Source of the DNA: a virus
Reading direction: 5' to 3' (one strand)
Length of the DNA stretch: 64,000 nt
IMG/VR virus record: IMGVR_UViG_3300042868_007692
Coordinates: 1 to 64,000 of that record
In this document: piece by piece, positions 1-64,000 of the stretch
How positions within the stretch are numbered: the stretch's first letter is position 1
Layout of the letters: each line of letters starts with the position of its first letter
Position numbers and translations under genes: made by a program
The notes under the pieces: generated by a model
Databases searched by the model: none
The model's input: the letters and a program-made list of their open reading frames with translations, nothing else
Told to the model about the DNA's origin: nothing

Positions 1-113
1 AAAATTATGAATGTGTGATCCTCCTTAGTTCAAAACCCCCACTAAGTTATAGGATTACAATACCCCTCCAGCATCAAAAGCTAAAGGGAAAATCCTGGCG
101 GGTAAAAAAATAT

Positions 114-140
114 CTCAACACCCACACTAATCTAGAGTAT
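114..140 (+). promoter_or_regulatory. Candidate phage early promoter, copy 1
   Basis: CTCAACACCCACACTAATCTAGAGTAT, 21 nt before the ATG; 24/27 identical to 579..605. Confidence 0.5.
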
Positions 141-161
141 AAACTTTAATAAATAAATCTT

Positions 162-437
162 ATGAACACTATCAATTCTATCAAACAACAACTTGGTTAT
201 GAAACTCTATCTTTGAACACTGTTACAACTGAAGCAGGTGAACAAACATCATGGATGAAACATTGGGATAACAATAGCCGAATTGCTGTACTAATACACA
301 AAGATACATTAGCTAAGATTAAAGCTAATCCTACTATTAGTACATTAGGAATCAAAACAGCTCTTAAACAGGGAGCACAAGGAGAGTATACAGCCCATAC
401 AATTGTAGCTTATACACCAGCAGAGGAGACACTATAG
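162..437 (+). CDS. Hypothetical early protein, paralog 1 of a tandem pair
   Basis: 91 aa ORF; 63/91 residues identical to 625..900 by manual alignment; has its own upstream motif and terminator. Confidence 0.85.
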   Translation: MNTINSIKQQLGYETLSLNTVTTEAGEQTSWMKHWDNNSRIAVLIHKDTLAKIKANPTISTLGIKTALKQGAQGEYTAHTIVAYTPAEETL

Positions 438-451
438 TCTCCTTTGTTTTT
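421..451 (+). terminator. Intrinsic terminator overlapping the stop codon
   Basis: CAGAGGAGAC-actata-GTCTCCTTTG followed by a T run. Confidence 0.75.
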
Positions 452-578
452 ATCCATAAGCCTTAATCAACACTACTAACTTTAACCAACTCTATAACCT
501 TGTGGCAACACATAGTTATAGAGTTATCTTTTTTATTTTATCTCTTTATCTTTTCTCTTTATCTTAAAATTGCCTCCT

Positions 579-605
579 CTCAACACCCTCACTAATTTAT
601 AGTAT
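579..605 (+). promoter_or_regulatory. Candidate phage early promoter, copy 2
   Basis: CTCAACACCCTCACTAATTTATAGTAT, 19 nt before ATG 625. Confidence 0.5.
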
Positions 606-624
606 TAATTTTAAATATTTAAAG

Positions 625-900
625 ATGGCAAATTTAGCTGAGATTAAAAGAGAGTTAGGTTATGATGTATTAAACCTAAATACAGTGACCACAGAGAGTG
701 GAGAAAACACTGAATGGATGAAGCAATGGGATAATGAGAATAGAATAGCTGTTCTTATCCATAAGGACACATTAGCTAAAGTAAAAGCTAAGCCTGGAAT
801 AGCTTCATTGGGAATAAATACCCAAGTAAAACAAGGGGCTAAAGGAGAATACATAGCTAAAACTATTGTTGCTTACACAGAAGCAGAAGAGACTTTATAG
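625..900 (+). CDS. Hypothetical early protein, paralog 2
   Basis: 91 aa, colinear paralog of 162..437. Confidence 0.85.
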   Translation: MANLAEIKRELGYDVLNLNTVTTESGENTEWMKQWDNENRIAVLIHKDTLAKVKAKPGIASLGINTQVKQGAKGEYIAKTIVAYTEAEETL

Positions 901-914
901 TCTCTTTTGTTTTT
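884..914 (+). terminator. Intrinsic terminator overlapping the stop codon
   Basis: CAGAAGAGAC-tttata-GTCTCTTTTG plus T run; compensatory base-pair change relative to copy 1. Confidence 0.75.
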
Positions 915-1020
915 CCTTTATTTTCCTTTATTTTTCTCTGTTTTTAGGGGATAAAAGTATGGGTTAGACCTCTCCTACCCTTTTCAATACATTTTCAAAT
1001 TACCTCAATTACATAACATA

Positions 1021-1427
1021 TATTTTAATAGCTTTTATTATTTAATCCTTAATCCAACTCACAATGAAAAAACTAACCTTTCTCCTATTAGTAGGAGTTA
1101 CTTGTTACTTAGGTGGCATTTTTTTAGGTCAATTAATTAGACCTTCATTAAATTCAAATCAACCTGTATTTATATGGAATGATGACCTTGAAGGAATTCC
1201 TGTAGATAGTACACCTATTCTTTTAGAATTTAGTTCTAAGAACCAAGATACTATTTACATAGGCTCTTTAGATGGCTATGATAAATCAGAATACCAATTC
1301 ACAATTACTGATGATTCAATTACAGTAACAGACTTTGGTAGAATAGTAGGCACAGTTAAAGTAGAAGGTCAATTAGAACAACTACTTATCAAAGACAATG
1401 AATAAGCTATTTTAATAGCTTTTATTA
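1021..1427 (+). repeat. Perfect 20-bp direct repeat flanking one gene
   Basis: TATTTTAATAGCTTTTATTA at 1021-1040 and 1408-1427. Confidence 0.8.
1064..1405 (+). CDS. Membrane-anchored or secreted hypothetical protein
   Basis: 113 aa; N-terminal MKK plus hydrophobic stretch. Confidence 0.75.
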   Translation: MKKLTFLLLVGVTCYLGGIFLGQLIRPSLNSNQPVFIWNDDLEGIPVDSTPILLEFSSKNQDTIYIGSLDGYDKSEYQFTITDDSITVTDFGRIVGTVKVEGQLEQLLIKDNE

Positions 1428-1738
1428 AACTAATGGAGATGAAGAATGCACCTAGTTAACAAGGTCCATAAAAGCAAGCTGACATTATCAGGGAGCCATT
1501 AGTTTATTTATTACACCTCTAATAATTGAGGTCAGTTAGCATAAGACGGAACAACAATGCACCTTAGTCCAGGTTTTTTGGCTCAATCATCTAATTAGGG
1601 AATTAAAGTAGGAACTAGCAACCTACCATAATTGAGCTGTTATTGTTATTTATTAAGTAAACGGAGTGCTAGGGTGGGAAGCCTTTAATAAATAACTATT
1701 TAAACCAATTATTAAATTTAATCATTTAATCCAACACA

Positions 1739-1936
1739 ATGAAAAAATCAGAAGAAACTAAACAAACTATGTGGGAAACATGGTTTGTTGCATCAGTTAT
1801 CATTTTATTTGCCTTCTTCTTTGTAGGCACATTAGATAATAGTAAAACAGAATTTCCTAATTGGCTACCATTTATGTTAGCTTCTTGTATTAACCTTATA
1901 ATCTGTATTTATTATGGATTTAAAACATCTAAATAA
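1739..1936 (+). CDS. Small membrane protein (2 TM)
   Basis: 65 aa with two hydrophobic segments; leader TAATCCAACACA like that of 1064. Confidence 0.7.
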   Translation: MKKSEETKQTMWETWFVASVIILFAFFFVGTLDNSKTEFPNWLPFMLASCINLIICIYYGFKTSK

Positions 1937-1938
1937 TT

Positions 1939-2220
1939 ATGATTGTAGAATTCACAAATTATGATAGTGATTACAGTTATGTAAGAAGTTATTACAGTGT
2001 AAACTTCCCAGATATAAACTTAAAAGCAAAAGAAGATATTTTTTTAATAGACTTTGAAAGTTTTTTAAAAGTAGGCTCTCTATTGTATTCAGAAAATAAA
2101 GAAAATTATGCAGGCCTTAAAGAAATTTATGGTATTACTTTTACAATAGTAAGTATTACTCATAAATACAATAAAGATAAAGGAGGCCACATATTATTAG
2201 TAGTAATAAAAGAATCATGA
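1939..2220 (+). CDS. Hypothetical protein
   Basis: 93 aa ORF tightly packed with neighbours. Confidence 0.65.
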   Translation: MIVEFTNYDSDYSYVRSYYSVNFPDINLKAKEDIFLIDFESFLKVGSLLYSENKENYAGLKEIYGITFTIVSITHKYNKDKGGHILLVVIKES

Positions 2221-2591
2221 GCTGGTCTAATTTTCCTGAGAACTGGGAAACAGATGCACCACACATTGAAGTACTTGATATTGATAAAGTGCCTACAGAA
2301 TTAACTGTGGGCACTAAATATCATGTAACTTGGGCATCTAAACCAGGTATGGTATGGGTTCTCAAAGGTATAAGCCAAAATAATCAGGCTATTCTTGAAA
2401 CCCCAAGATCCAAAAAGATTATACATACTCATGTACATAATCTTAGACACATTAACAAAAATGCCCTTCAACAGGCTAAGTTAAGAATTAAAAAAGAGAA
2501 GAGAAAAATAACAATTATTAGTGGTACTCAAGAGATAATATCTAGTAATGCTAATACTTGGGGAGAACTTAAAAAAGAGATAAAGATTTAA
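2217..2591 (+). CDS. Hypothetical protein ending in a fragment similar to the Ubl N-terminus
   Basis: ATGA overlap; C-terminal RKITIISGTQEIISSNANTWGELKKEI resembles REVTIYATRGGNMKKIMTSVKTWGELQPLV of 22358..23107. Confidence 0.7.
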   Translation: MSWSNFPENWETDAPHIEVLDIDKVPTELTVGTKYHVTWASKPGMVWVLKGISQNNQAILETPRSKKIIHTHVHNLRHINKNALQQAKLRIKKEKRKITIISGTQEIISSNANTWGELKKEIKI

Positions 2592-2819
2592 CTATCAATT
2601 AGTTAACCTACTTTACTTAAAGCTCTTATACCTTAAAGAAAGAAAGTACCAAAGAAAGAAAACTATACAGTTAGTCTAGTGGGACAAGAAGTTTGTCTCA
2701 TAGTCTTACTCTGTTGCACTGTAGTGCACATAGAAAACTATGTTAAGGCAAAGTTATAAAAAATAAATTTAATAATCAAGTGTTTTATATAATTTAAAAC
2801 CAATCTAAATCCAATCAAA

Positions 2820-2978
2820 ATGGCACAAAAAAGAACACACTTTAAAACAGGTGCATTAGTAGCTTCTACTAATAACCTTAGACGTATCCAAGCTAAAAGA
2901 TTTGATACTTTAGTAAGATATGTAGATGGGATATCTCCATCAATAATCAGTACAAGAATCATAGGTTTTAAATCATAA
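2820..2978 (+). CDS. Small basic hypothetical protein (52 aa, not in the ORF track)
   Basis: MAQKRTHFKTGALVASTNNLRRIQAKRF...GFKS*; preceded by AATCCAATCAAA leader like other early genes; ends 5 nt before the next ATG. Confidence 0.65.
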   Translation: MAQKRTHFKTGALVASTNNLRRIQAKRFDTLVRYVDGISPSIISTRIIGFKS

Positions 2979-2983
2979 CAATT

Positions 2984-3271
2984 ATGAAACTGAAAGAATT
3001 AAAAGCTAAAATAAAACATTTTACAAATGTTTTAAAAAGTAGATTATCTCAAATACTTGAACCACAACCTGAGATTCAAGTAGACTATGTAGATAAAGTA
3101 GTACATCTTTTAAGAAGAGATTTTAGTACTGCAAAACAGAATGAAATACTATTATCCATAGGTCAAAAACTTTCTAATTTAAGAGAAGAAGACATGAGGA
3201 GAATAGAGAAGGAATATGCCACTTTACAAGAGAACACAAATACTCTTAAAGATAAAATGGCTTTAGTTTAA
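2984..3271 (+). CDS. Hypothetical coiled-coil protein
   Basis: 95 aa ORF. Confidence 0.7.
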   Translation: MKLKELKAKIKHFTNVLKSRLSQILEPQPEIQVDYVDKVVHLLRRDFSTAKQNEILLSIGQKLSNLREEDMRRIEKEYATLQENTNTLKDKMALV

Positions 3272-3371
3272 ATTTAGGTTGGATTAGATTTAACGGTAAG
3301 ATTAAAGAGGAGTCAGACTTCTTTGAAGCATCCTCTTCTTTTCTTATTAATCCACTTATAATTAATAATAT

Positions 3372-3447
3372 AAACAGTTTGTTGAAGCCAATAGTAATAA
3401 AACCGACTATGTGATGCAATCCCTATAAAGCCGGATACAAACTGTTT
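3372..3447 (+). ncRNA. Small structured RNA motif (possibly Flavo-1-like)
   Basis: 11-bp stem AAACAGTTTGT/ACAAACTGTTT enclosing TGAAGCC..AACCGACTATGTGATGCAATCC..AAAGCCGGAT; retains two CG dinucleotides; family name is from memory and unverified. Confidence 0.5.
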
Positions 3448-3463
3448 TTAAAATAATATTAAC

Positions 3464-4474
3464 ATGAGTAAATATAGATTTAAAACTGAAGAAGAGTTTA
3501 AAAAAGAAGGACTTTGGGATAAAAATTGCCCTCAAAGATGGACTATCTCAGGAAACATGAACAAATATCTTGGTCAAGATATACCTAAAGAATATAATAG
3601 GTATTGTGATGAAGGAAAATCATTTAGCTATAATGGCTGGTCTTTTAGTAGTCAAGATTATATATTAAAAGAATCTGTCTCTCAATACACCAAAGGTAAA
3701 TGGTATAATTGTAAAAGATGGAATTCTAAAAATGATTTTGTTAGACTAACAAAAGTTGTTGATGGCCAAGCTTATTTTACAGAATGTCTTGATAAAGGAA
3801 AGTATAGCAGTGGAAAAGAAAACTGGTGGATATTTGATAATACTGAATACCCATTATTTGAAGCTGATATGTCTATTGTTAGTCCTCTTCTTCCTGATGG
3901 ACATCCTGATAAAATATTTACTAAAGAGTTTTCTTTTATTCTTCCTGAAAAATGGTGTATTAAACTTACTGGAGAGAATATTGAAACATTAGGTAAATGG
4001 AGAACTTCAGGTCCTATAACAGCTGAAAGATATATAACAGAAAGTTGGTATCTACATACACCTAAACATGGAGCTAGAGGTTATAATGAACCTAAAAAAG
4101 ATCCTGATTACACAGAGATTACATTTGAACAGTTTAAACAGTATGTATTAACACCTTCTAATGATGCAAAGATTGTTCCTGAAAAAGAAAATTATGAAGG
4201 TAGAACTATTAGAGCTTTAGTAAAAAGTCCTCAAGGTACACAGGTACAAATAGGAGAAACAATTTGTATTATTCAACTTCTTCATAGTAGCTATAAATTA
4301 GGTATGAATTCTTCAGGTACATCAGGTCTGTATATTGATTATCCTCTTAATCTTAATCAATGGGAATTAGTTTCTGAAGATGCATATCCAAGTATTAAAA
4401 AAGAAACATTTATAGATAATGTGCAGTCTGTAGATGTAATATTACGCACAAAAAAGAAAACAATTAAATTTTAA
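3464..4474 (+). CDS. Hypothetical multi-module protein
   Basis: 336 aa, several short Trp/Tyr-rich modules. Confidence 0.8.
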   Translation: MSKYRFKTEEEFKKEGLWDKNCPQRWTISGNMNKYLGQDIPKEYNRYCDEGKSFSYNGWSFSSQDYILKESVSQYTKGKWYNCKRWNSKNDFVRLTKVVDGQAYFTECLDKGKYSSGKENWWIFDNTEYPLFEADMSIVSPLLPDGHPDKIFTKEFSFILPEKWCIKLTGENIETLGKWRTSGPITAERYITESWYLHTPKHGARGYNEPKKDPDYTEITFEQFKQYVLTPSNDAKIVPEKENYEGRTIRALVKSPQGTQVQIGETICIIQLLHSSYKLGMNSSGTSGLYIDYPLNLNQWELVSEDAYPSIKKETFIDNVQSVDVILRTKKKTIKF

Positions 4475-4485
4475 TCCTTAAAAAC

Positions 4486-4839
4486 ATGAACAAAATGAAA
4501 AGTTTCGTAAAAGAAGTAGTAGCTATTATTAGTGGTGACAATGCTGAAGCAACAGGTCAAAAAATCTTAAGACAAGCAGATAGTGCTTTTAAAACACAAA
4601 TTGCTTCTCTTTCAGGTAGAACAATATCTTTAGAAGATAATGTTGAAGATGCAAAAGAAAGTTTAAGATTGGCAAAACTTAACAATGGTAAAGTTATGCC
4701 TACAGAGTTAGACAGAAACTGTTTTATAGAAGAGTTGTTAAATGCTAAAAACAAAGTTACTGATTGTGAAGAAGCTCTTGAAGTACATTTAGCAAAAATT
4801 GCTTTCTTACAAGAAATGCATGATTCTTTAGACAAGTAA
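4486..4839 (+). CDS. Hypothetical helical protein
   Basis: 117 aa, heptad-like pattern. Confidence 0.8.
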   Translation: MNKMKSFVKEVVAIISGDNAEATGQKILRQADSAFKTQIASLSGRTISLEDNVEDAKESLRLAKLNNGKVMPTELDRNCFIEELLNAKNKVTDCEEALEVHLAKIAFLQEMHDSLDK

Positions 4840-4846
4840 TAGAATT

Positions 4847-4916
4847 AAGGCATGTGATAAAATAGTTATATAACAAGGTTAATTAACTTATTTGGGAAAA
4901 TTTCACATGCCTTTTT
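4847..4916 (+). terminator. Long hairpin or terminator
   Basis: AAGGCATGTGA...TCACATGCCTT followed by a T run. Confidence 0.5.
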
Positions 4917-5011
4917 AAAACAAGGCTAAACATTGAACCTTTGTAAATAAAAGACAATATACTAGTGTAAGTACAATAGTGTGCACATTATTTACATAAA
5001 GATACTAATCC

Positions 5012-5335
5012 TAAATTGACAAGATATTAATGAGTACATATTTAATAATCAAAATCCTATTTCAATAGGTTAGTTATTAAATACCCCTTACTGAGGTGGT
5101 CTACTGCTTTTAAGGCATAGATATTAATGGAGTAATCCTAGAACGTGAGTTGCCTTGAGAAAGCAATGTCCTATAAAAAGAGAGTCATCAGGATCTCTAC
5201 TCACGTAATGAATTCTCAGCAAGTAGTGATGGTCAGAAAGTAACATCTAAAATATTAAAGACCTAATCCTACGTGACCCTACTCTTATTGCTGCTCTATT
5301 GAAACAGAATAAGAAAGAGGGTGCTAAATTATATA
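5012..5335 (+). ncRNA. Candidate structured ncRNA upstream of tmRNA
   Basis: No ORF; nested helices ACGTGAGT(5143-5150)/ACTCACGT(5199-5206), ACCCT/AGGGT, TCTTATT/AATAAGA, GGTC/GACC. Confidence 0.45.
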
Positions 5336-5339
5336 TTAT

Positions 5340-5785
5340 GGGGTAGCCGGGTATTGACCTGCCATAGTAGATTTAAAGATTCAGCCAGAGAGATAACTGT
5401 AAACTAAGATGAACATAATAAATGACAATCATTTAGAAAATGCTCAAGTACAAGCTAATATGACAGTTGTACACAATATCTTAAATGGTATTGAAGAATT
5501 GTCTTCTGCTTCAAAAGAAGTGGAGTTGGCTGTGGCTGCCTAAGCCAAAGATTAGGACCATAACTTAGGTTAAAGTTAATACTCCCTTTTGCTAGTTTGG
5601 GATAAAACTAGATGGTGGAGGCTTGCTGTTTACAGTTGGCCCTTTTCTTGCATTGCCAAAGCAGAAGTAAAAGATACATTGGCAAAACTTGAATGATACT
5701 TCAAGTATAAAACTGTATCAAAAGCTGTAATAAATCTTTATTTTGAGATGACCAGGTAACGTGGGTTCAACTCCCACCTACTCCA
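5340..5785 (+). ncRNA. ssrA: tmRNA (transfer-messenger RNA)
   Basis: Acceptor GGGGTAG/CTACTCC with G3.U pair and discriminator A; T-arm GTGGG-TTCAACT-CCCAC; helix 2 ACCTG/CAGGT and AAAGATT/AATCTTT; tag frame 5424-5543 ending LAVAA-TAA; CCA not encoded. Confidence 0.95.
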
Positions 5786-5789
5786 CTTA

Positions 5790-5884
5790 GGGAAATTCAT
5801 TTTGGAATTATGAGGGAAGTTCTCATAATCATAGGTCAAGATCCTTGAAAAATAGGTACAAGGGTTCAAACCCCTTATTTCCCT
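5790..5884 (+). tRNA. Non-canonical tRNA-like element
   Basis: 7-bp acceptor GGGAAAT/ATTTCCC stacked on T-arm AAGGG-TTCAAAC-CCCTT; no canonical D or anticodon arms. Confidence 0.5.
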
Positions 5885-6156
5885 CTACAAACATTGTCAA
5901 CACGAGGTCCTTCATTCCATTGTATCCTAAAACAATAAAACTCTTGAGTTTAAATATTGTAAGTGAGCTGGTCACAGACAAGCTGTAGTACAGAGGTTTG
6001 GGTCAGAGTAACTAACAAGTGTTTGGCTTTGCCATGATCTTAAGAATATCTCTCTGACTTTTAAACTAAAAAGGCAAAACTTAATTTAAAACAAATCTCT
6101 ATATATGGAATAGGTTATTGCCTTCCTATAAAGTATGTAGAACAACAAAACACATT

Positions 6157-6798
6157 ATGAATACACAAATTTCAAACACAGAAAATCAAGGAGTAAGAAA
6201 ATCAGTTACTAAATCTCCTTTAGAAGTAACAAGAGTGCATGCAACTGCTTATCAAAAAGAGGGAACTCTTACAGCAGAAATTAAACAGACTGTGACTACA
6301 AAGTCATTTTACCCATCAAAGTCTGTAAGCAACAATATGCAAGATAATCCTTTTGCAAATTCAGATTTTGGATTTGAAGAAAAAGAATATAGTGCAGATG
6401 AAAAAAGAGTTGCATGGGTTGATGTTCCTGCAGGTTCTACTGTAGAATCTGTAGTAGCTAAATTAGCTGCTTTACCTACAGCTACAATCCGTAAAGTATT
6501 GGCTAATAGACCAATCATTACTGATAGCCAACAATATGCTATTAGTGCAGGATTAACTTCAATGGATGCTATTGCTGATAAGCAAGTAGTTAGATATCCA
6601 GAAGGAAATCCACAAGCAGGACAACTAATCTTAAAAGATGGTAAACCTCAATATAAAGCTACATACTTTAAGAATGCAGCTATTGAAGACCAAGATTTAA
6701 GAACTGCAGATCCTGCTGATTTTTATGCTACTCCTACTATGAAAGTAGAATTAGCTGGTATTACAACTACTATCTCAGCAGAGCAAAGTGTATTGTAA
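6157..6798 (+). CDS. Hypothetical protein (possibly ssDNA-binding)
   Basis: ATG 6157 after an A-rich leader is preferred to TTG 6118; followed by a terminator; function unsupported beyond context. Confidence 0.75.
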   Translation: MNTQISNTENQGVRKSVTKSPLEVTRVHATAYQKEGTLTAEIKQTVTTKSFYPSKSVSNNMQDNPFANSDFGFEEKEYSADEKRVAWVDVPAGSTVESVVAKLAALPTATIRKVLANRPIITDSQQYAISAGLTSMDAIADKQVVRYPEGNPQAGQLILKDGKPQYKATYFKNAAIEDQDLRTADPADFYATPTMKVELAGITTTISAEQSVL

Positions 6799-6816
6799 TA
6801 AATAGACAGTAAAATT

Positions 6817-6849
6817 AGAGAGTGAGGATATTTCCTTACTCTCTTTTTT
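6817..6849 (+). terminator. Intrinsic terminator
   Basis: AGAGAGTGAGGA-tatt-TCCTTACTCTCT plus T run. Confidence 0.85.
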
Positions 6850-6868
6850 ATTTCTAAGAGTACTTACC

Positions 6869-6876
6869 TATTTTTG
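6869..6876 (+). promoter_or_regulatory. Bacteroidetes-type -7 promoter element
   Basis: TATTTTTG (TAnnTTTG) just after the terminator, at the head of the replication block. Confidence 0.55.
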
Positions 6877-6907
6877 TAAATTGTTAAATCAACCTAAATT
6901 ACTTATT

Positions 6908-7210
6908 ATGAGTCAAAAAAAAGAATTAACCTTGCTTAAAGGTTTTTATGTTAATATCTCTGAACCAATTACTTTAGTTTCTAAAGAAGGTCCAGCTAAA
7001 AAAAGAGCTGTAGTAACTATTGAAACTGCAGATGGTCAAGTAGGTTTCTTTGAAGTAAGAGATGCTATTATAAACAGAATTAATAAGCTAGGCTTATTAC
7101 AAGGAGATGAAATCACTATTGGATTTGTATTCATAGGTGTTAAGAAGAATGATAAAATTTATAACAATTTATTTATAAATCAGATAGATTATGTCAACTC
7201 AAGAGGATAG
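6908..7210 (+). CDS. OB-fold / DUF3127-like protein
   Basis: GDEITIGFVFIG..K.NDKIYNNL pattern; ATG 6908 preferred. Confidence 0.55.
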   Translation: MSQKKELTLLKGFYVNISEPITLVSKEGPAKKRAVVTIETADGQVGFFEVRDAIINRINKLGLLQGDEITIGFVFIGVKKNDKIYNNLFINQIDYVNSRG

Positions 7211-7640
7211 AAATAGAAAAATTACAGATGCTAATTTACAATTCTTAGTATTACTAAATTTAGTAATTGAAAAGATAGAATACTTAGAAACTGAAGGGTT
7301 TATTTATGGCTCTCTTAAAAACTTTCTTAAGAATGGTAAAAAACAATTTGAATCTTTTATTAGTAAAGTATTTAAAATTCAAGATACTATAGAAGAAGAC
7401 ACTGCTTTAAGTTCAAGTACTAAACTTCTTGTTATGCAAGAAAGAGTAGAAAAAGCTTTAGAAAATGATTACATTATTACTTCTGAAGAAAGAATGTTAA
7501 GAGCAAAAGCCATATTAAAAGACTATATTACTCCTGTTTATGAATTAGGAGATAGTCCAGAAAAATTAGAGCTTAAAAAAGAGCTTTTAATAGATGAAGT
7601 TTTAGAAAAAATGTATGAAAAAAATCTATTTAATTTTTAG
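7191..7640 (+). CDS. Hypothetical protein
   Basis: 149 aa ORF overlapping the previous gene. Confidence 0.75.
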   Translation: MSTQEDRNRKITDANLQFLVLLNLVIEKIEYLETEGFIYGSLKNFLKNGKKQFESFISKVFKIQDTIEEDTALSSSTKLLVMQERVEKALENDYIITSEERMLRAKAILKDYITPVYELGDSPEKLELKKELLIDEVLEKMYEKNLFNF

Positions 7641-7642
7641 TT

Positions 7643-8413
7643 ATGAAAAACATACACGTATTACCAACAGAGAAACCAAGTAATTTATTATTATGTATAA
7701 AAAGTTATACAGAACATAAAGATACACCAGCAGAAAATTCAGATAATAAAGGTAATTTTAGATTAGGTTTTGGTATATACTCTAATACCGAATTTTATCA
7801 ACATCAAAACATCTACATCACTTCTGATGAAGATATTAAAGTTGATGAATATTATTTAGGTGATGACAATCAAATTTATTGCTTAGTATCTAAAGTTAAT
7901 TGTAATGGTAAAAAAATCATCCTAACAACAGACCAAGACTTAATCAAAGATGGGATACAAGCTATTGATGATGAGTTTTTAGAATGGTTTGTAAAGAATC
8001 CAAGTTGCGAATATGTTGAGATTAAGAAAGGTAGCTATAATCTTAGTCCAATGGAAGAAAGGTTAGAAAAAGAATATGTTCCAAAGGGTACATTTGATAC
8101 TTATAAAATCATCATTCCACAAGAAGAACCTAAACAAGATAGAACTTGTACAAATAATTGTTCTGTAGTTTGCGGAGAATGTCAAATATTAGAACCTAAA
8201 CCATTGCTGTCAGTAGAATGGTTATTACGTTATATTGAAGACTTAAATAATAAAGGTTATACTTTCATACCAAGTTCTAATAAAGAAATAGTTGAACATA
8301 TTAAACAAATGGAAAAAGACAATATGATTGCCTTTTTAAAATTTGTTTTTCAACAAGATGGTTTTGATTATGAACAAGCTTATAATAATTTTTTAAAACA
8401 ACAAATATTATGA
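7643..8413 (+). CDS. Hypothetical modular phage protein
   Basis: 256 aa; C-terminal SVEWL..KQMEK module is repeated in 9023..9223. Confidence 0.8.
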   Translation: MKNIHVLPTEKPSNLLLCIKSYTEHKDTPAENSDNKGNFRLGFGIYSNTEFYQHQNIYITSDEDIKVDEYYLGDDNQIYCLVSKVNCNGKKIILTTDQDLIKDGIQAIDDEFLEWFVKNPSCEYVEIKKGSYNLSPMEERLEKEYVPKGTFDTYKIIIPQEEPKQDRTCTNNCSVVCGECQILEPKPLLSVEWLLRYIEDLNNKGYTFIPSSNKEIVEHIKQMEKDNMIAFLKFVFQQDGFDYEQAYNNFLKQQIL

Positions 8414-8859
8414 AACTAATAAAAATGACAGATTTTGTTTTAAGTTTTGGAACAGAATCAAATAGATGTAATTATGAACAAGCCTATGATAGAATTTCTT
8501 CTTACGCTATATTCTTAAAAACAAACTTAAATTTAGGTATGTTTATCCCTTGTGATGAAAAAATGAACATTTTAAAAAAACCTAAAAATAAAAGTAATTT
8601 AGGTAGCGGAAAAACTGATGCTGTTGAATTACTAAAATACGAAAATAAGTTAAGAGATTACAATTATGCATTATCAAAAGTGTTATTCAAAGATTTTCAT
8701 TTACACATAGATTATGAAGATAACTTTAAAAAATGCGTTGCTGTTCCTGGCTTTGTTTTACCATTTGAAGTATTATACACAATGAAAATTGAGGATATTG
8801 TTGATAACGATATTGAACTTACAAGGATTGGTATTAATGCAATAAATTATAAATATTAA
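8410..8859 (+). CDS. Hypothetical protein
   Basis: 149 aa, ATGA overlap. Confidence 0.75.
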   Translation: MKLIKMTDFVLSFGTESNRCNYEQAYDRISSYAIFLKTNLNLGMFIPCDEKMNILKKPKNKSNLGSGKTDAVELLKYENKLRDYNYALSKVLFKDFHLHIDYEDNFKKCVAVPGFVLPFEVLYTMKIEDIVDNDIELTRIGINAINYKY

Positions 8860-9022
8860 AAATACTAAAATACATCAAGGATTAGAAAAATCAGAATTAA
8901 GAGATTTTTTTTCAATATCATTACTTAGAAATTTAGAAAAATTAATAAATAATGAAAGAGAACAAGTTTTTAAAGATAATGAATTTATAAAAAATGGTTT
9001 GAACAATTTAAAAAGAAATAAG

Positions 9023-9223
9023 ATGACAGCAGTAGAATGGTTGATTAATGAATTGCAAAATAGTCCAGCATTTCATTCACAATTTTTTAAAGACGAATTT
9101 CAACAAGCCAAAGAAATGGAAAAGCAACAGATTATTGATGCTTATAAACAAGGATTTTCTGATTGTGATGATATAGGTATTAGTGTATATGATGAATACT
9201 ACAACAAAACATTTAACAAATAA
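9023..9223 (+). CDS. Small hypothetical protein (MTAVEWL type)
   Basis: ATG 9023 preferred; shares a module with the C-terminus of 7643..8413. Confidence 0.7.
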   Translation: MTAVEWLINELQNSPAFHSQFFKDEFQQAKEMEKQQIIDAYKQGFSDCDDIGISVYDEYYNKTFNK

Positions 9224-9227
9224 CATT

Positions 9228-11114
9228 ATGAGATACTGCGTATTTGACATTGAAACAGATGGTTTACTTGAACAACTAACTAGACTTCATTGCCTTGTAG
9301 CTCATGTTTATGAAGATAATCAATTTCTAAAAGAGTATGTTATTACAAATCCTTGGGAATTGGCTAATTTCTTAAGTACACAAAAGATTCTAGTAGGTCA
9401 TAATGTCAAAAGATATGATTTTCCTGCTATTAAAAAACTAACTGGATATGAACATAAAGGTAAAGTAATAGATACTTTAGCTTTATCTTGGTATTTATAT
9501 CCAGAAAGAAAAGAGCATGGATTAGAGTCTTGGGGAGTAGAGATAGGAGTAGCTAAACCTTTTATTTCAGATTGGGAAAACCTTAGTACTGAAGATTATG
9601 TTAACAGATGTAAGACAGATGTTATTATTAATACTATTCTCTTTGGAAATTTTATTTCTTATCTTGAAGAACTGTATTCAGAATCTTCTTATGAAGGTAT
9701 CATAGCATATTTAACTTGGAAGTTAGATTGTGCTGCAGAACAAGAAGCCAATCCTTTAACTATAGACAGAGAACATTGTATAAATACTTTAGGTATTTTG
9801 AATACTCTTGTAGAAGAAAGAAAAGCTAATCTTGCCGCAGTTATGCCTAAAATTGAGAAATATGCAGTAAAAAAGAAACCGGCTAAGATGTTTACTGTTA
9901 AGGGAGAATTGACTAAAGCAGGAATAGCTTGGTTAGAATTACTTGCAGACAATGATTTAGAAGCAGATTTTGATGGAGAATTAAGCTTACTTAAATCTAC
10001 AGAAGAACCTAATCCTACCTCAACAGCCCAATTAAAAGCTTGGCTTTTTCAATTAGGTTGGCAACCTACAGTGTTTAATTACACACCTAATAAACAAAGA
10101 GAAGTAAGACCTATTCCTCAAATCCAAACTAAAGAACAAAAATTATGTCCCAACATTTTAGTCTTAGCTGAAACTCATCCTGTTCTAAATGAACTTAAAG
10201 GATTATTCATGCTTCAACATAGAATTGGAATATTAAAAGGTTTCTTAGAATGTTCTGATGAATCAGGTAAAATGCAAGCTCAAATAGCAGGATTTACAAA
10301 TACTTTAAGATTTAAACATAAAAAGCCAGTTACTAACTTACCTTCTGTAGAGAAACCTTATGGTAAAGAAATTAGAGGAGCTATTATCTCCCCTAGTGAT
10401 AACCATTTATTTTGTGGTAGTGATATGAGTTCATTGGAAGACACTACTAAACAACACTACATGTATTTTTATGATCCTGACTATGTAACACAAATGAGAG
10501 TGCCAGGGTTTGACCCTCATCTTGATATTGCTGTGTTATCAGGTATGCTTACACCTGAACAGGTTAATGAGCATAAGCTTTATGAAGCCACAAAAGGAGA
10601 ACAAGGGACATCTTACAAGAAGGTAAGAAGTAAGGCTAAAGTAGTAAACTTTTCAGGTATTTATGGTGCAGGTCCACCTAAGATTGCTTTAACTACAGGT
10701 ATGTCTTTAGAAGAAGCTACTTTGCTACATAAGATTTATTGGCAAAGAAATAAGTCTGTAAAACAAATAGCTAAAGATTGTTTAGTAAAGACTGTTAGAA
10801 AGCAAATGTGGTTGTATAATCCTGTAAGTAGCTTTTGGTATTCTTTGAGGACAGATAAAGATAGATTTAGTACTTTGAATCAAGGTACTGGAGTTTATTG
10901 TTTTGATACTCATATTAGAAATGTAAGGAAACAAGGAATTGTTATTAACCTTCAATATCATGATGAGATTGGGTTCTCTTTACTTAAACAAGACAAAGAA
11001 GTAACTTCAGCTAAGTTACATAAAGCCATAGAGTTAACTAATCAACAATTATGTTTAAATGTTCCTTTAGGAATAAGTATTGACTATGGAGACAACTATG
11101 CAGAGTGCCATTAA
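9228..11114 (+). CDS. polA: DNA polymerase family A (T7-like) with 3'-5' exonuclease
   Basis: Exo motifs FDIETDG, GHNVKRYD, DTL; polymerase motifs A SDMSSLE, B RSKAKVVNFSGIYG, C YHDE; ATG 9228 preferred. Confidence 0.95.
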   Translation: MRYCVFDIETDGLLEQLTRLHCLVAHVYEDNQFLKEYVITNPWELANFLSTQKILVGHNVKRYDFPAIKKLTGYEHKGKVIDTLALSWYLYPERKEHGLESWGVEIGVAKPFISDWENLSTEDYVNRCKTDVIINTILFGNFISYLEELYSESSYEGIIAYLTWKLDCAAEQEANPLTIDREHCINTLGILNTLVEERKANLAAVMPKIEKYAVKKKPAKMFTVKGELTKAGIAWLELLADNDLEADFDGELSLLKSTEEPNPTSTAQLKAWLFQLGWQPTVFNYTPNKQREVRPIPQIQTKEQKLCPNILVLAETHPVLNELKGLFMLQHRIGILKGFLECSDESGKMQAQIAGFTNTLRFKHKKPVTNLPSVEKPYGKEIRGAIISPSDNHLFCGSDMSSLEDTTKQHYMYFYDPDYVTQMRVPGFDPHLDIAVLSGMLTPEQVNEHKLYEATKGEQGTSYKKVRSKAKVVNFSGIYGAGPPKIALTTGMSLEEATLLHKIYWQRNKSVKQIAKDCLVKTVRKQMWLYNPVSSFWYSLRTDKDRFSTLNQGTGVYCFDTHIRNVRKQGIVINLQYHDEIGFSLLKQDKEVTSAKLHKAIELTNQQLCLNVPLGISIDYGDNYAECH

Positions 11115-11352
11115 TTACACAAATTTTTTTCAATTCTTCTTACATATTCCTGTAGCAGTATTTGAAGATATAAGTGATGAAGAAATAATAGGAGATTGCT
11201 ATGAAATGGCAGCTTATCCTATTGTTATTATAAGAAATCCTAAACATCCTTTATTTATTCAAATAAAAACAGAATTTAAAAAGAAAGGAATAGAACAAGA
11301 ACTTAAATGTATAGTCTTAGCAATAGGCTATAATAATCCGTATTTATCATGA
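11080..11352 (+). CDS. Hypothetical protein
   Basis: ORF filling the gap between polymerase and helicase; start uncertain (ATG 11086 or 11098). Confidence 0.55.
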   Translation: MTMETTMQSAINYTNFFQFFLHIPVAVFEDISDEEIIGDCYEMAAYPIVIIRNPKHPLFIQIKTEFKKKGIEQELKCIVLAIGYNNPYLS

Positions 11353-15982: not shown

Positions 15983-16015
15983 ATGGCTAAAATTTTAGTG
16001 CTTGCCCCTAGTGGG
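15983..16015 (+). pseudogene. Orphaned 5' end of the AAA ATPase gene
   Basis: Encodes MAKILVLAPSG, identical to the first 11 aa at 16622 but with different synonymous codons. Confidence 0.85.
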
Positions 16016-16046
16016 TTATTTTCTAAAAATTGTGTATCTTTGTTCT

Positions 16047-16598
16047 ATGAAAATAGACACACAATTAAAAACTCTAGTAGGTATTTACTGTATTGAAAAT
16101 ACAGTAAATGGTAAAAAATACATAGGCAGTTCAACTAATATTTACCAAAGAGGTCTTAAACATAGATCTCAATTAAGAAGTATTAGTCACCCTAATAAAA
16201 AGTTACAAAATTCTTATAATAAACATGAAGAAAAAAATTTTATTTTTTATGTAGTAGAACTTTGTTTAAAAAAAGACTTGATTAGATTAGAGCAGCACTA
16301 TATAGATTTTTACCTTCCTTTTTATAATCTTATGTTACAAGTAGAAAGAAAAGATTTTTCAGCAGAAACAAAACTTCAAATATCTAATTCTTTAAAAAAA
16401 AGATATAGAGAAGGTTTGAGTAATAATTGTGAAAGAAAAGTTAATCTTTATACAGTAACAGGAGAATATATAAGAACTTATGATAGCATTACAAAATGTT
16501 CAAAAGATATTAAAGCAGATTTATCTAATGTAAAAAGAGTACTAAGAGGAAGACTAAAAACTTGTAAAGGTTTTAAAATTACTTATCACAATTCGTAA
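16047..16598 (+). CDS. Free-standing GIY-YIG homing endonuclease
   Basis: GIYCIENTVNGKKYIGSS..R..H, E, YN; NUMOD-like tail; ATG 16047 is 4 nt after TATCTTTG. Confidence 0.9.
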   Translation: MKIDTQLKTLVGIYCIENTVNGKKYIGSSTNIYQRGLKHRSQLRSISHPNKKLQNSYNKHEEKNFIFYVVELCLKKDLIRLEQHYIDFYLPFYNLMLQVERKDFSAETKLQISNSLKKRYREGLSNNCERKVNLYTVTGEYIRTYDSITKCSKDIKADLSNVKRVLRGRLKTCKGFKITYHNS

Positions 16599-20773: not shown

Positions 20774-21802
20774 ATGAGCTTATTTCAATACAATTCAGAT
20801 AAACTTGATAGAAGAGGATATATAAGTAAGGAAAGTATTTTGTCTTTAGTTACTCAAGAAGATGTATTTGAGTTAGTGTTCAAATTTAAACCTGAAGAAT
20901 TTGAGTATGTAGTATCTCCTTTAAGAAATGATGATGTACCAGGATGTTGGTTTTCTTATCATGATAATGGTACTCTCTATTTTGTAGACTTTGGTAATTC
21001 TAGGACTCATAGTGATTGTTTTAATATAGTCCAGGACTATTACAAATTTCCAAACTTCTATTTGACTTTAGAATTTATTCATAACTCTTTAATTAGAGGT
21101 AAGACTGAATTAAAGGAAATAGAACCTAAAAAAATAATCCAAAAAGTATCCAAAGAAGGAGTCAAACTCTTAATAGAAGCAAGACCATTTAGTGAGCAAG
21201 ATGGTTATTTCTGGTCTAAGTATGGTATTAGTAAAGCCAATCTAAAAGAAGACAGAGTTTTTCCTATTCATAGATTATATGCTTTGAATACTAAAACAGG
21301 AAGTCATGCTATTGAATGCAAAGATTTAGCATACAGTTACACTGATTTTCCTGAAGCTAGAAAGAAAATCTATTTTCCTTTAAGACAAGGAAAGAATAGG
21401 TTCATTACTAATTGTAATAAAGATGATGTAGGTGGCATCAACTCTCTGTCTCAATATAGTAAGCAACTTATTATTTCTAAAAGCTACAAGGATTATAGAG
21501 TACTTAAAAATAATGGAAAAAATGTAGTTTGGTTTCAAAATGAAGGTATGATACCCAATAATGAAATTATAAACAAATTGGTTAAACTTTATTCAGAAAT
21601 TATTGTATGGTTTGACAATGATCAGCCTGGAATTATAGCTTCAGAAAAAGTCAAACAACATATAAATTCCATTATTCCAAGTAGAGCTAAAAATCTATGG
21701 CTACCTGAGAGAGGGTTAGAAATAGGGGTTAAAGACCCTTCAGATTGTATAGCTAAAGACCCTATTTATTTTCAACAATTCTTAAAAGACTTTACAAAAT
21801 GA
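20774..21802 (+). CDS. DNA primase (TOPRIM)
   Basis: SPLRNDDVPGC N-domain, KSYKD, QNEG, WFDNDQPG, KDPSD. Confidence 0.85.
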   Translation: MSLFQYNSDKLDRRGYISKESILSLVTQEDVFELVFKFKPEEFEYVVSPLRNDDVPGCWFSYHDNGTLYFVDFGNSRTHSDCFNIVQDYYKFPNFYLTLEFIHNSLIRGKTELKEIEPKKIIQKVSKEGVKLLIEARPFSEQDGYFWSKYGISKANLKEDRVFPIHRLYALNTKTGSHAIECKDLAYSYTDFPEARKKIYFPLRQGKNRFITNCNKDDVGGINSLSQYSKQLIISKSYKDYRVLKNNGKNVVWFQNEGMIPNNEIINKLVKLYSEIIVWFDNDQPGIIASEKVKQHINSIIPSRAKNLWLPERGLEIGVKDPSDCIAKDPIYFQQFLKDFTK

Positions 21803-23107: not shown

Positions 23108-23114
23108 TATTAAT

Positions 23115-23150: not shown

Positions 23151-23155
23151 ATATT

Positions 23156-58578: not shown

Positions 58579-58580
58579 GA

Positions 58581-61205: not shown

Positions 61206-61232
61206 CTTGCTTTAATTTATTAAAGGTTAAAC

Positions 61233-64000
61233 TTATCTTTCTGATATATTTTTATTTAAACTAGAATAGTAGAAAGTCAGCCTTTTATTGGTATCAAAAG
61301 TATCAAAAATTAATCTGACTACCAAGAACTTGTCTCTGAAACTTTCTAATTCATTCCAACTCTTAGTATAAGAAAGACATGCCGGGTTTACAATTTTGTC
61401 TATGTAATAGTTAGATTGTAATGCATTCAATTCTTTAATAAACATAGGAACTGCTACAGTAGTTCTAATATCTCTCATATCATTTAAAGTCCAATCTCTT
61501 TCATTTCTATCAGCTAGAATAGAGCCTGAGCCTAAAGTATTTTGAGTTTGTTGTAATAAATAGTTACTAGAGTCATTAGACTTAGTTGTAATATTTAAGA
61601 TACCACTTATTTGTTCTGTATTATAAAATAAAACTTTATTGAAAGTAGTATTTCTAATATCATTATACTCTTGAGTAGTTGCATCAAATTGTTTAGCTTC
61701 AGTTTGAAACATCATATAATTCCAAAGTTTAGTTGATAACAACTGAGGGTTATCTACATACTCCACAATAAAAGGATAAGTAGTTCCATAAAAAGTTCTG
61801 TAGTGGCCTTGTCTATTATGTCTCCATAAAGAATTAGATCCTTGAGGCCATGAATAAAACTTCTCTTGATTATGTAAATAGAAACTAGGTAAATAAGGAT
61901 GCCAACTTCTCCACTCTTGTCTTTTTAAAGAGTAACTCATAGTCCAACTATTATTAACTAAGTTAGCAGCTAAGTTATAAGGAGTTCCAGAGATGTAATC
62001 ATACTCTACAGTTTCAATTTCTACTTCTTCTGTCACTGTAGTTGTTTCATAGTATCCAGGTATATCTACAGCAGGAGCACAGTTTTGACTTAAATCATAA
62101 GTGTAATTTGCAGTAGTAATTTCAAAAGTGTAACCAGCTTCAATCATAATTAAAAAGACTCCAGCAGTACAGTCATTTACATCTAATAATAATTCTACAT
62201 AACCTACAACAGGAATTACTCCAGTGTATAATACTACAGTGTTTCCTTCACAGTTTATGTAACCTACTACATAAAAACCTGAACCAGGAGGAACATACTC
62301 AGACTCTGTAGATTGTATTATGATAGCAGCTTTTTTAATAAAAGAGTAAGGTGAAACACACTCATCACCTCCAGGCACAGGAGGAACCCAAGTTTGAATT
62401 TCTCTTGTTATAGTTTCTGTAGTAATAACTTTTCTTTGAAAAGCTAACTCACAATCTTGTATACCTATGTAATCCCAACCATCAGCTACTTTATCTGCAA
62501 TAGTTTCAGAAATGTTTTCAAAAATTACAGGTGTAGAAGACCCTAAACATAATTGATAATCTTGAGCAGGAAGATTTAATAATTTAAAATCTTTCTTAGT
62601 TACAATTAACCTCTCCTTATTAGTATCATAAGTGGATATAAAACCTACTCCTAAAGGATTAGAAGGGTTATTAGAATAAGGATATTGCTCTCTGTTAGCA
62701 TTATAGTAATCTTGCTCAACTAGGAAATCCATGTGAGTTTTAAACCAAGAAGAATTACCATTATCACTAATAGGCTGTAACTGCTCTCCATTAAATAAGT
62801 ACCATTTCTTTTCTTTTACAGAAGGAAATAATACTCCATACTTAGTTTTAGTTCTACCCCATTTGTGTTTATTACCAGCAGAAGAGTTATTGTCATCTAC
62901 CATTTTTCTTGGGGGAATAGAAAAGTAATCTCCAGTCCCAATGAAAGAAATGACATCTCCTGTAACTCTTTCTTGAAAACTCTGAGGACAATGCCAAAGA
63001 CCTTCTTCAGTGTGAATGTAAAGATTATTTTGTATTCTAAAGATATCAGTTATTTTTCCTGTTTCAGCTTCAAGGTCTTTGTAGTTGTTAGGTAAAAACA
63101 TTCTAAAGTTATCTGTAATTTCTTCTTGAAAAGCTTGCTCTGACCAATGCCATCTATGAGGAAACTTTTCAGTACAATCTGAACAGCAATCATATTCTAA
63201 AGCTAAATGGTTAAAGAACTTTTGTTTATTTCTTCTAGTATAATCTGGATTTAAAAGATACATTTCTGCAGCAGCTAATCCAATATAACTTTTATATCCT
63301 TTTCTTTTAGCATCAAAGAAGGTAAGTTTATTTACCATGTGACTATCTAAAGAAGTGGTAGGTTTAATATTTTCTGTAGTAACAGAGTAGATATCAAAGT
63401 ATTCCCAACTTCCTTCAGGGACATTAGTGCCTTCTTCTCTATTCTTAGGGGCCCCTAAAAAATCAGGAGTACTGTCTGTAGCTCCATGTCTTAAATTCAT
63501 ATTAATTGAAGATTCAAACCATAAGTTAGCACATTCTCCTAACCATTGAATTTCATCATCAGATGGATTTTTTCTAAAACCTCTTTCTTCTCCAGATACA
63601 GGATCTTTATCTACTAACACATAGTGGTCAGTTACAGTGTCCCTAAGACCTGCGTTATACAATTCATTGTAAGCTTTGTTCCAAGCATCTTGTTTAATTC
63701 CTGACATAACTAAAGAAGTAGCTACACCTACTGCTGCTGCTGAAGCAGCTAAACCTGCAGAAGCAACTATTAAAGGAGTTCCTGCACCAAGACTAAAGAT
63801 AGTCACTACAATAGCAGCTACTACAAGAACTGCAGCTATAATAAAATTCCAAGCATTAGTTTTACCTGCTCTTTTTCTCATTCTAGTATCATGATAAATA
63901 CTATTTACATATCTCATAGGACATATATAACTATCTCCATTAAAGATTTCACAAGTACTTGTAGTAAAAGATTCAGGATTTCTACTTTCTTTATAGTAAG
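61233..64000 (-). CDS. Tail stabilisation/muzzle-type protein (5' truncated by the window edge)
   Basis: Frame is open to the window end (..EIFNGDSYICPMRY..); beta-propeller-like segments, YDTNKERLIVTKKD, WTMSYS...WRSWH.YLP, FRDKFLVVRL. Confidence 0.7.
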   Translation of the reverse strand, partial: YYKESRNPESFTTSTCEIFNGDSYICPMRYVNSIYHDTRMRKRAGKTNAWNFIIAAVLVVAAIVVTIFSLGAGTPLIVASAGLAASAAAVGVATSLVMSGIKQDAWNKAYNELYNAGLRDTVTDHYVLVDKDPVSGEERGFRKNPSDDEIQWLGECANLWFESSINMNLRHGATDSTPDFLGAPKNREEGTNVPEGSWEYFDIYSVTTENIKPTTSLDSHMVNKLTFFDAKRKGYKSYIGLAAAEMYLLNPDYTRRNKQKFFNHLALEYDCCSDCTEKFPHRWHWSEQAFQEEITDNFRMFLPNNYKDLEAETGKITDIFRIQNNLYIHTEEGLWHCPQSFQERVTGDVISFIGTGDYFSIPPRKMVDDNNSSAGNKHKWGRTKTKYGVLFPSVKEKKWYLFNGEQLQPISDNGNSSWFKTHMDFLVEQDYYNANREQYPYSNNPSNPLGVGFISTYDTNKERLIVTKKDFKLLNLPAQDYQLCLGSSTPVIFENISETIADKVADGWDYIGIQDCELAFQRKVITTETITREIQTWVPPVPGGDECVSPYSFIKKAAIIIQSTESEYVPPGSGFYVVGYINCEGNTVVLYTGVIPVVGYVELLLDVNDCTAGVFLIMIEAGYTFEITTANYTYDLSQNCAPAVDIPGYYETTTVTEEVEIETVEYDYISGTPYNLAANLVNNSWTMSYSLKRQEWRSWHPYLPSFYLHNQEKFYSWPQGSNSLWRHNRQGHYRTFYGTTYPFIVEYVDNPQLLSTKLWNYMMFQTEAKQFDATTQEYNDIRNTTFNKVLFYNTEQISGILNITTKSNDSSNYLLQQTQNTLGSGSILADRNERDWTLNDMRDIRTTVAVPMFIKELNALQSNYYIDKIVNPACLSYTKSWNELESFRDKFLVVRLIFDTFDTNKRLTFYYSSLNKNISER

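Follow-up and report, generated by a model that had tools for sequence, protein, structure and literature searches.

Why would a phage genome in which GpC is normal retain almost no CG? The question is raised by the first 64,000 nucleotides (nt), here called the window, of IMG/VR virus record IMGVR_UViG_3300042868_007692, a contig of 73,164 nt (77% complete by CheckV) that gene homology identifies as a crAss-like phage. The window holds 64 CG against ~1,497 expected from its 9,623 C and 9,958 G, an observed/expected ratio (o/e) of 0.043 that amounts to a loss of ~96%, while GpC occurs 1,693 times (o/e 1.13); the full contig, with 74 CG, also stands at 0.043. An earlier note, made from the letters alone, had claimed extreme CpG depletion, about ten CG between 38 and 64 kb, and arginine codons that are nearly always AGA or AGG. 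Counting bore out all three statements: a profile computed per 2-kb step gives 10 CG in positions 38,001-64,000, where the summed expectation is ~584, and AGA (664) and AGG (66) together provide 730 AGR codons on the contig against 5 CGN.

The depletion is real and extreme, and it is not a by-product of codon choice. Controls were run on the codons of the whole contig (80 open reading frames [ORFs], 23,189 codons), more than 90% of which lies inside called ORFs. The most depleted codon class is CGN (5 against 297 expected), which makes up a share of 0.004 of arginine codons here compared with a host median of 0.46, and NCG codons number 24 where a redraw by composition expects 429±19. In 200 synonymous shuffles of the codon junctions, C|G was expected 454.6±16.1 times (smallest shuffle, 406) and was found 35 times, while G|C remained normal (288 against 272±11). 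Codon usage cannot explain the loss at junctions, and it is this loss, with G|C left intact, that separates the depletion from codon choice. Over the ORFs as a whole, 60 CG remain against 462±17.5 in synonymous shuffles. Non-coding DNA (3,862 nt) has 11 CG where 83 are expected and is thus less depleted than coding DNA (o/e 0.13 versus ~0.035). The comparison of CpG with GpC under a codon-shuffled control was the check that the earlier note had proposed, and its suggestion of selection against CG is backed by the junction control, by the loss of CGN and by the depletion of coding and non-coding DNA alike.

Selection on the CG step in double-stranded DNA

The depletion acts on double-stranded DNA and on CG as such, because the loss is equal on both strands and in palindromic and non-palindromic contexts. 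Survival of NCG on the sense and antisense strands was 0.034 and 0.042 with A as the 5' base, 0.093 and 0.098 with C, 0.032 and 0.021 with G, and 0.020 and 0.017 with T, and the same symmetry was observed in all seven gene sets, including 12 pooled close relatives, crAss001 and the related genomes G001 and G002. Such symmetry argues against selection on mRNA or translation, as might be exerted by a CG-reading RNase, a sensor like the vertebrate antiviral protein ZAP or a codon-pair effect. Given the high coding fraction of the contig, transcripts would include most CG, as an RNA-level cause requires, but the depletion also reaches non-coding DNA and the gene of a structural RNA, and we regard this explanation as barely credible.

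A sum of restriction sites would act on DNA and has more in its favor. Under this explanation the phages would have avoided many CG-containing sites (ACGT, TCGA, GCGC, CCGG, CGCG and longer ones) over many hosts, and it agrees with the lineage-specific avoidance of palindromes described below, with the failure to find a methylase and with the report of Rusinov et al. (2018, PMC6286503) that avoidance is strongest in non-temperate double-stranded DNA phages. The loss is nevertheless not confined to mostly palindromic sites with other CG contexts left alone, as would be the style of Type II enzymes. In the contig, palindromic NCGN (ACGT, TCGA and GCGC) has an o/e of 0.026 and non-palindromic NCGN one of 0.039, with ACGA/TCGT retained at 10 of 378, and in all ten of the crAss-like genomes that we call purged (CG o/e 0.03-0.14) the palindromic contexts are no more depleted than the non-palindromic ones, which fall outside any 4-bp site. 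Pooling the purged genomes leaves every NCGN class except CCGG at 0.037-0.077, and no context in the contig is less depleted than CCGG, which is itself a classical restriction site. The equal loss argues against summed ordinary restriction sites, an explanation that we consider improbable, and for CG itself as the target. Together, these results demonstrate purifying selection against CG at the level of double-stranded DNA, and a loss that is independent of the flanking bases apart from CCGG.

Mutational and compositional causes were weighed against the same data. The earlier note had offered decay driven by methylation as an alternative, in which CG methylated by host or phage would pass from 5-methylcytosine to T. 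The signs of such decay, an excess of TG and CA and retention of the CGN arginine codons, are both absent: TG stands at 0.992 and CA at 0.996 in the window (TG/CA 0.99; host median, 1.04), AG and CT are at ~1.4, and CGN, which transitions cannot remove silently, is the class lost most. Decay also predicts the strongest loss in unconstrained DNA, whereas it is the non-coding DNA that is less depleted; neither the contig nor the crAss-like records searched yielded a methylase gene; and the lowest sampled host genome stands at 0.31. On the other side, several purged relatives have a slightly elevated TG/CA (1.04-1.19), a negative correlation links CG o/e to TG/CA across 19 related phage genomes (rho -0.55, P = 0.014, uncorrected for kinship), and a CpG methylase accompanies CpG shortage in Mycoplasma penetrans (as cited in PMC11282364). 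The alternative is thus not supported in this contig, and we hold it to be distinctly improbable. Across the same 19 genomes, the correlation of CG o/e with the AG/CT excess is stronger (rho -0.78), which gives weak support given the kinship of these genomes and the AG/CT excess that is found in unpurged crAss-like phages too. A transversion mutator specific for CG is hypothetical, and the depletion does not follow polymerase type as such a mutator might (Fpv3, with a family B DNA polymerase [PolB], at 0.066; G002, with a family A DNA polymerase [PolA], at 0.41).

In favor of passive composition, whether low G+C, DNA mechanics or a copied host dinucleotide signature, CpG content in phages tends to follow that of the host according to PMC11282364, which describes the causes of the CpG bias of bacteria as unknown. 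Some sampled Flavobacteriales are moderately CG-poor (0.31-0.41). However, Flavobacterium phage 11b has a G+C equal to that of the window (0.306) and a CG o/e of 0.72, GpC is normal here, and 30 genome samples of Flavobacteriales/Bacteroidota (20 kb each) have a CG o/e no lower than 0.31 (median, 0.80). Phages outside the crAss-like group that infect the same host genera or species are likewise unpurged (11b at 0.72, 6H at 1.07 over its first 20 kb and B40-8 at 1.19). Compared with this candidate host order only, the contig, at 0.043, does not carry a host-like CG signature, and composition alone seems extremely improbable as the cause.

Surviving CG and their contexts

The survivors are not drawn evenly from all contexts. 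By 5' base, NCG o/e per strand view is 0.049 for A, 0.102 for C, 0.029 for G and 0.017 for T (chi-square P = 1e-14), so that the context bias on which the earlier note had staked its claim is present. Its statement that many survivors are CCGG is likewise correct, as all ten of the places it named are real and two more were found at 3432 and 5348, making 12 of the 64 CG in the window (binomial P = 1.6e-7 against the share expected from the flanks). CCGG has an o/e of 0.30-0.35, compared with 0.005-0.10 in the other NCGN classes. Contig-wide, it occurs 14 times against 47 expected (0.30), the other nine NCGN classes standing at 0.00-0.09, and this count is near the 11.4 expected from independent half-site preferences. 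CCGG is effectively exempt from the purge in this contig, because within ORFs it equals the expectation of synonymous shuffles (12 against 13.4±3.0) while CG as a whole is reduced from 462 to 60.

The exemption is not fixed among the ten purged genomes. Observed against expected CCGG is 0/75 in G061, 0/76 in Kolpuevirus 'frurule', 0/37 in Fpv3 and 1/93 in cr126_1, compared with 18/127 in crAss001, 36/78 in G068 and 187/77 in G001. The CCGG tolerance that the earlier note took as a hint of specificity is therefore present in this contig but does not amount to a constant specificity across the purged genomes. We read CCGG as a separate layer of restriction-modification laid over the CG purge, although its sparing may also come from a flank preference of the putative agent. 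A synonymous shuffle of G001 (the record of locus L023, 94,664 nt) gave 3 CCWGG against 56.3±3.9 and 185 CCGG against 63.7±6, the CCGG excess being seen also at codon pairs that cannot make CCWGG (for example, Pro-Glu and Ala-Gly), and a CCGG excess occurs in G002 and in the unrelated Bacteroides phage B40-8 as well. One idea is that the excess may come from a repair bias toward CCGG.

A second CG-bearing context is the word ATCCGTA, which is present five times against 0.12 expected, a number that none of 100 dinucleotide-preserving shuffles reaches. Four copies read AATCCGTA, and both G061 and G001 have kept the copy at 19988. The word may be a functional site keeping its CG. Among words free of CG, the most under-represented on the contig under a maximal-order Markov model (both strands) are CTAG (340 against 638) and GATC (122 against 347), with CTCC and GTA over-represented.

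The coordinates of the features discussed in this and the following section are collected in the table.

Features of the window and the evidence that identifies them
Feature	Position	Strand	Basis or remark
Probable phage-encoded tmRNA	5340-5788	+	ARAGORN; tag peptide ending AVAA
Two accessory ORFs, core of the 7.6-9.2 kb island	7643-8413 and 8410-8859	+	Least purged coding DNA
Family A DNA polymerase	9183-11114	+	Pfam DNA_pol_A
Group I intron	12398-13236	+	Rfam Intron_gpI, E 1.2e-10 and 2.1e-4
GIY-YIG homing endonuclease ORF in this intron	12628-13206	+	Pfam
Free-standing GIY-YIG homing endonuclease gene	16002-16598	+	Pfam GIY-YIG, NUMOD
Two insertions in a conserved gene	16982-19138	+	Gene pieces 16622-16981, 17931-18098, 19139-19342
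LAGLIDADG ORF carried by one insertion	17073-17774	+	Pfam LAGLIDADG
Group I intron with ORF 18347-19066	18110-19076	+	Rfam Intron_gpI, E 5.4e-8
DNA primase, marker for collecting relatives	20774-21802	+	PHROG 12622, E 3e-91
Four-gene cassette	22358-26142	+	Putative ubiquitin-like protein, 397-aa protein, JAB/JAMM metalloprotease, ThiF/E1-like enzyme
ORF of 4,430 aa	43230-56522	-	Probable counterpart of a giant virion RNA polymerase gene
Twelve CCGG (position of CG step)	3432, 5348, 9880, 15657, 18517, 22377, 28885, 36244, 42293, 47147, 53609, 61383
ATCCGTA, five copies	6487, 11336, 19986, 25262, 56923	19986 on -	CG-bearing survivor word; last copy ends at 56929

By module, CG o/e falls from 0.138 in the region of small ORFs and RNAs (1-9182) to 0.038 in the replication module (9183-38018) and 0.025 in the virion module (38019-73164). 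The earlier note had placed the survivors in non-coding RNAs, introns and the island. When the tmRNA region, the introns and the insertion with their endonuclease ORFs, the GIY-YIG gene and the island are pooled (6,141 nt), they contain 25 of the 74 CG at an o/e of 0.20 versus 0.031 elsewhere, so the concentration exists in the pool, which is itself still strongly depleted. Individually, only the two island ORFs pass a Bonferroni correction among 94 segments tested (o/e 0.36 and 0.75; P = 3.0e-5 and 9.1e-7 against the contig background); the RNA region 4840-5828 fails narrowly, and the introns and homing-endonuclease genes are non-significant. The second of the island ORFs has a counterpart in none of ten compared genomes and the first in G001 only; their relatives elsewhere are unnamed proteins only. 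Less purged accessory or imported DNA is what would be expected if incoming DNA is cleaned gradually. By alignment, the survivors in core genes are mostly unconserved (2 of 30 aligned CG common with G061, and 5 of 31 with G001), and surviving CG would accordingly be mostly transient.

The probable tmRNA matches Rfam RF00023 (E = 5.5e-14) with 39.8 bits, where the gathering score is 47, and its gene has 2 CG against 15.4 expected next to 19 GpC, which suggests that the tmRNA itself has been rewritten to avoid CG; a weak tRNA-like match follows it at 5814-5884. The first group I intron divides a helicase gene into 11349-12383 and 13248-13589, and the interval 12384-13247 has 1 CG against 20 expected. 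Farther on, a gene whose three pieces are 81-85% identical to G001 is interrupted by two insertions with 4 and 2 CG (o/e 0.24 and 0.08), and the free-standing GIY-YIG gene has 1 CG against 8.9 expected.

A trait of one crAss-like lineage

The assignment of the contig to crAss-like phages rests on the homology of its replication and virion genes to those of recognized members, with genes in common with crAss001 and others. The primase is 49.6% identical to that of Flavobacterium psychrophilum phages FpV4/Fpv3 and has weaker matches in crAss001, in phi14:2 and in gut crAss records assigned to Crassvirales, and a virion protein matches PHROG 15100 (E = 0). The contig also encodes helicases, an exonuclease, an ATP-dependent ligase and a ThyX-like protein besides the family A DNA polymerase, and the minus strand carries very large virion genes, including the 4,430-aa ORF. 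Every crAss-like genome compared has a weak tblastn match to this ORF, which probably corresponds to a gene that is annotated in relatives as the giant virion RNA polymerase. A search of the phage collection found no near-identical record of the contig.

Comparison with relatives shows that the purge is a trait of one branch and not of all crAss-like phages. Among 51 IMG/VR loci related by primase, 47 have a CG o/e of at most 0.20, and two lack CG altogether in ~13 kb. Whole-genome values of purged crAss-like phages are 0.028 in crAss001, 0.032 in G061, 0.038 in cr126_1, 0.053 in G069, 0.055 in Kolpuevirus 'frurule', 0.066 in Fpv3, 0.094 in G066, 0.117 in G001 and 0.137 in G068, so that cultured phages (crAss001, Kolpuevirus 'frurule' and Fpv3) and uncultured IMG/VR relatives share the trait. 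G002 is intermediate (0.41), and the unpurged crAss-like genomes are phi14:2 (0.46), cr10_1 (0.53), Rudgehvirus jaberico (0.58), cr1_1 (0.64), crAss002 (0.73) and cr130_1 (0.88). Within the lineage, depletion is graded from 0.00 to 0.48. These genomes also avoid the classical sites GATC, GGCC, CCGG and CCWGG in lineage-specific sets, which indicates that site avoidance is their habit.

No methyltransferase that could protect the phage was found, in agreement with the earlier note, which had seen none in the window. The contig and 14 other crAss-like records were each searched for one or more of three Pfam families: the contig gave no match to PF00145, PF01555 or PF02086, nor did Pfam scans of 40 of its ORFs reveal a methyltransferase, although at 77% completeness the missing part could hold one. 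PF00145 and PF01555 had no match in G000-G004, crAss001, phi14:2, Fpv3, G061 or G066, PF00145 had none in five further gut crAss genomes, and PF02086 had none in G000, crAss001, phi14:2, Fpv3 or G061. On the 77% complete contig, the phage thus shows no protective methyltransferase of its own, as would be expected of a genome that avoids restriction sites. The two unpurged non-crAss controls whose full annotation tables were consulted, B40-8 and 11b, are annotated with methylases.

At the sensitivity of tblastn, the sole genes that every purged genome has and the five unpurged crAss-like genomes lack are those of the four-gene cassette, which lies just downstream of the primase and a UDG-like ORF. 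The JAB and ThiF genes are present in eight of eight purged genomes and in G002 and in none of five unpurged crAss-like genomes; ThiF is found in Kolpuevirus and absent from Rudgehvirus, and the cassette is conserved from Flavobacterium phages to gp76-gp79 of crAss001. ThiF is recognized by Pfam, by PADLOC as E1-E2 and by NCBIfam as PRTRC ThiF. The columns of the JAMM motif (E...HSH...S..D) are invariant in 17 sequences, the 397-aa protein carries an invariant Cys, and the small protein, whose N-terminal domain ends in a conserved K-S-G, is predicted to be ubiquitin-like. The cassette therefore looks like protein-conjugation machinery, and its likeness to bacterial PRTRC and Bil/Cap2-Cap3 type systems is one of family matches only; searches of the PDB with three cassette proteins gave no match. 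As a cause of the purge the cassette was rejected, because it occurs also in L039 (0.48), L049 (0.40) and L052 (0.39) and has the look of protein conjugation, and we read it as a lineage marker. In three loci (L040:12555-13712, L035:11856-13169 and L024:11021-11629), the tblastn matches to the cassette cross one or two in-frame stops (TAA, TGA) near their ends, which are probably ORF-boundary effects.

The type of DNA polymerase was likewise considered and rejected. PolA goes with the purge in nine of ten PolA genomes and PolB with its absence in six of seven, PolB being the sole gene consistently common to unpurged crAss-like genomes and rare in purged ones, but Fpv3 and G002 break the rule in opposite directions. 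The assignment of PolA rests on Pfam and annotation in crAss001 and on a weak match in Kolpuevirus, and cr126_1, in which tblastn detected neither type, was counted as PolA only by its kinship with Kolpuevirus. The Pfam PF00136 search was uninformative, since it missed even the annotated PolB of phi14:2.

Origin of the pressure on CG

The explanation that we favor, with a probability of about one half, is that the lineage meets in its hosts an activity that targets DNA at CG and evades it through loss of the target. A lineage without a DNA methyltransferase cannot neutralize such an agent by modification and escapes by the near-absence of targets. Each CG would carry a small cost, and continuing purifying selection would keep CG out of double-stranded DNA; new CG would come by mutation or with imported genes and then be removed by silent rewriting, with AGR used for arginine, NCT or NCA for NCG, and T or A for C before a codon that starts with G. 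The agent would probably be a nuclease or other defense function of Bacteroidota hosts that reads CG itself; we infer its existence, its host origin and its nature. More tentatively, and with the odds somewhat against it, Bacteroidota or this crAss-like branch may possess a DNA-targeting activity that reads a dinucleotide, a two-base distinction of self from non-self, with the lineage having erased CG from ~100 kb instead of modifying it; CCGG would then be spared wherever host methylation of CCGG, or a preference of the activity for certain flanks, protects it.

Several observations weigh against a host-borne agent. A CG-reading enzyme was identified in no host or phage, and we know of no restriction enzyme that recognizes CG alone. 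With 74 CG remaining, the agent cannot kill on a single site. A search with the primase of 185,579 species genomes found no related prophage or contaminant. The purge tracks the phage lineage, which fits a cause intrinsic to the phage about as well. Phages with the same recorded host species also differ: on Bacteroides cellulosilyticus, Kolpuevirus 'frurule' (0.055) stands tenfold below Rudgehvirus jaberico (0.579), and on Flavobacterium psychrophilum, Fpv3 (0.066) contrasts with 6H (1.07). A purely host-imposed pressure would thus need the extra assumption that the unpurged phages are protected otherwise. A need of the agent for two nearby CG sites was considered and rejected, since by inspection close pairs persist at 35411/35533 and 42184/42293.

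The main rival is a cause intrinsic to the phage, such as a CG-directed function made by the phage itself, for example a nuclease that destroys the DNA of host or competitors but leaves the CG-poor DNA of the phage intact, or a replication, transcription or packaging apparatus that performs poorly on CG. The trait follows lineage rather than recorded host, ten genomes at 0.03-0.14 standing apart from six crAss-like genomes at 0.46-0.88 in addition to the same-host contrasts, and phi14:2 (0.46), which lacks the cassette, belongs to the same ICTV subfamily as crAss001 (0.028). Chloroviruses provide a precedent in nucleases that are encoded by the virus, cut at very short sites (2-4 bp) and degrade host DNA. 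A phage-made cause is nonetheless unlikely in our judgment: the sole lineage-wide genes are those of the conjugation-like cassette, found also in relatives at 0.39-0.48, polymerase type is not decisive, depletion graded from 0.00 to 0.48 is unlike the effect of a single phage gene, and a candidate nuclease was not identified. That a single dinucleotide is reduced 25- to 35-fold implies a strong pressure on CG in DNA, and the purged and unpurged crAss-like phages recorded on the same host species make its origin testable in phage-host pairs that are already at hand. If the agent were found, it could turn out to be a form of immunity new to bacteria or a new way in which a phage takes over its host. 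The purge also matters for k-mer-based host prediction, which assumes that a phage resembles its host, and for the design of DNA intended to enter these phages or hosts.

Comparison with known systems places the purge beside several forms of word avoidance. A literature search, judged on titles and the openings of abstracts, found no report of a CG purge in crAss-like phages. In phage T4, modified cytosine is combined with C-specific nucleases, so that its own DNA is told from that of the host before the host DNA is broken down. Self-discrimination as in T4 or the chloroviruses would explain a trait shared by a phage lineage rather than by a host range, but those viruses modify or methylate bases, whereas here the target word is deleted, and a nuclease of this kind was not found. 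The vertebrate RNA viruses that suppress CpG under ZAP (as cited in PMC11282364) are similar in that a virus purges CG by selection, the CG-reading host factor being only proposed here; they differ in that the present loss is alike on the two DNA strands and includes non-coding DNA, and in that the hosts are bacteria. Mollicutes, whose CpG shortage has been linked to M.MpeI, the CpG-specific methyltransferase of Mycoplasma penetrans (cited in PMC11282364), likewise have prokaryotic genomes strongly under-represented in CG, but in the present phage no methyltransferase was found, TG/CA is not in excess and CGN is lost. The avoidance of Type II sites in non-temperate double-stranded DNA phages, as set out in PMC6286503, is alike in that a phage unprotected by methylation removes a short DNA word by selection; here, by contrast, the word is a dinucleotide lost equally in palindromic and non-palindromic flanks, and the loss takes in ~96% of the ~1,500 occurrences expected, not just a few dozen sites. 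The resemblance of phages to their hosts in CpG, as described in PMC11282364, holds for the temperate 6H (1.07) and for 11b (0.72), which lie inside or near the sampled host range. The depletion in the present phage is far deeper than in any sampled host, its lineage standing 7- to 25-fold below the hosts sampled and its purged members tenfold below other phages with the same recorded host species.

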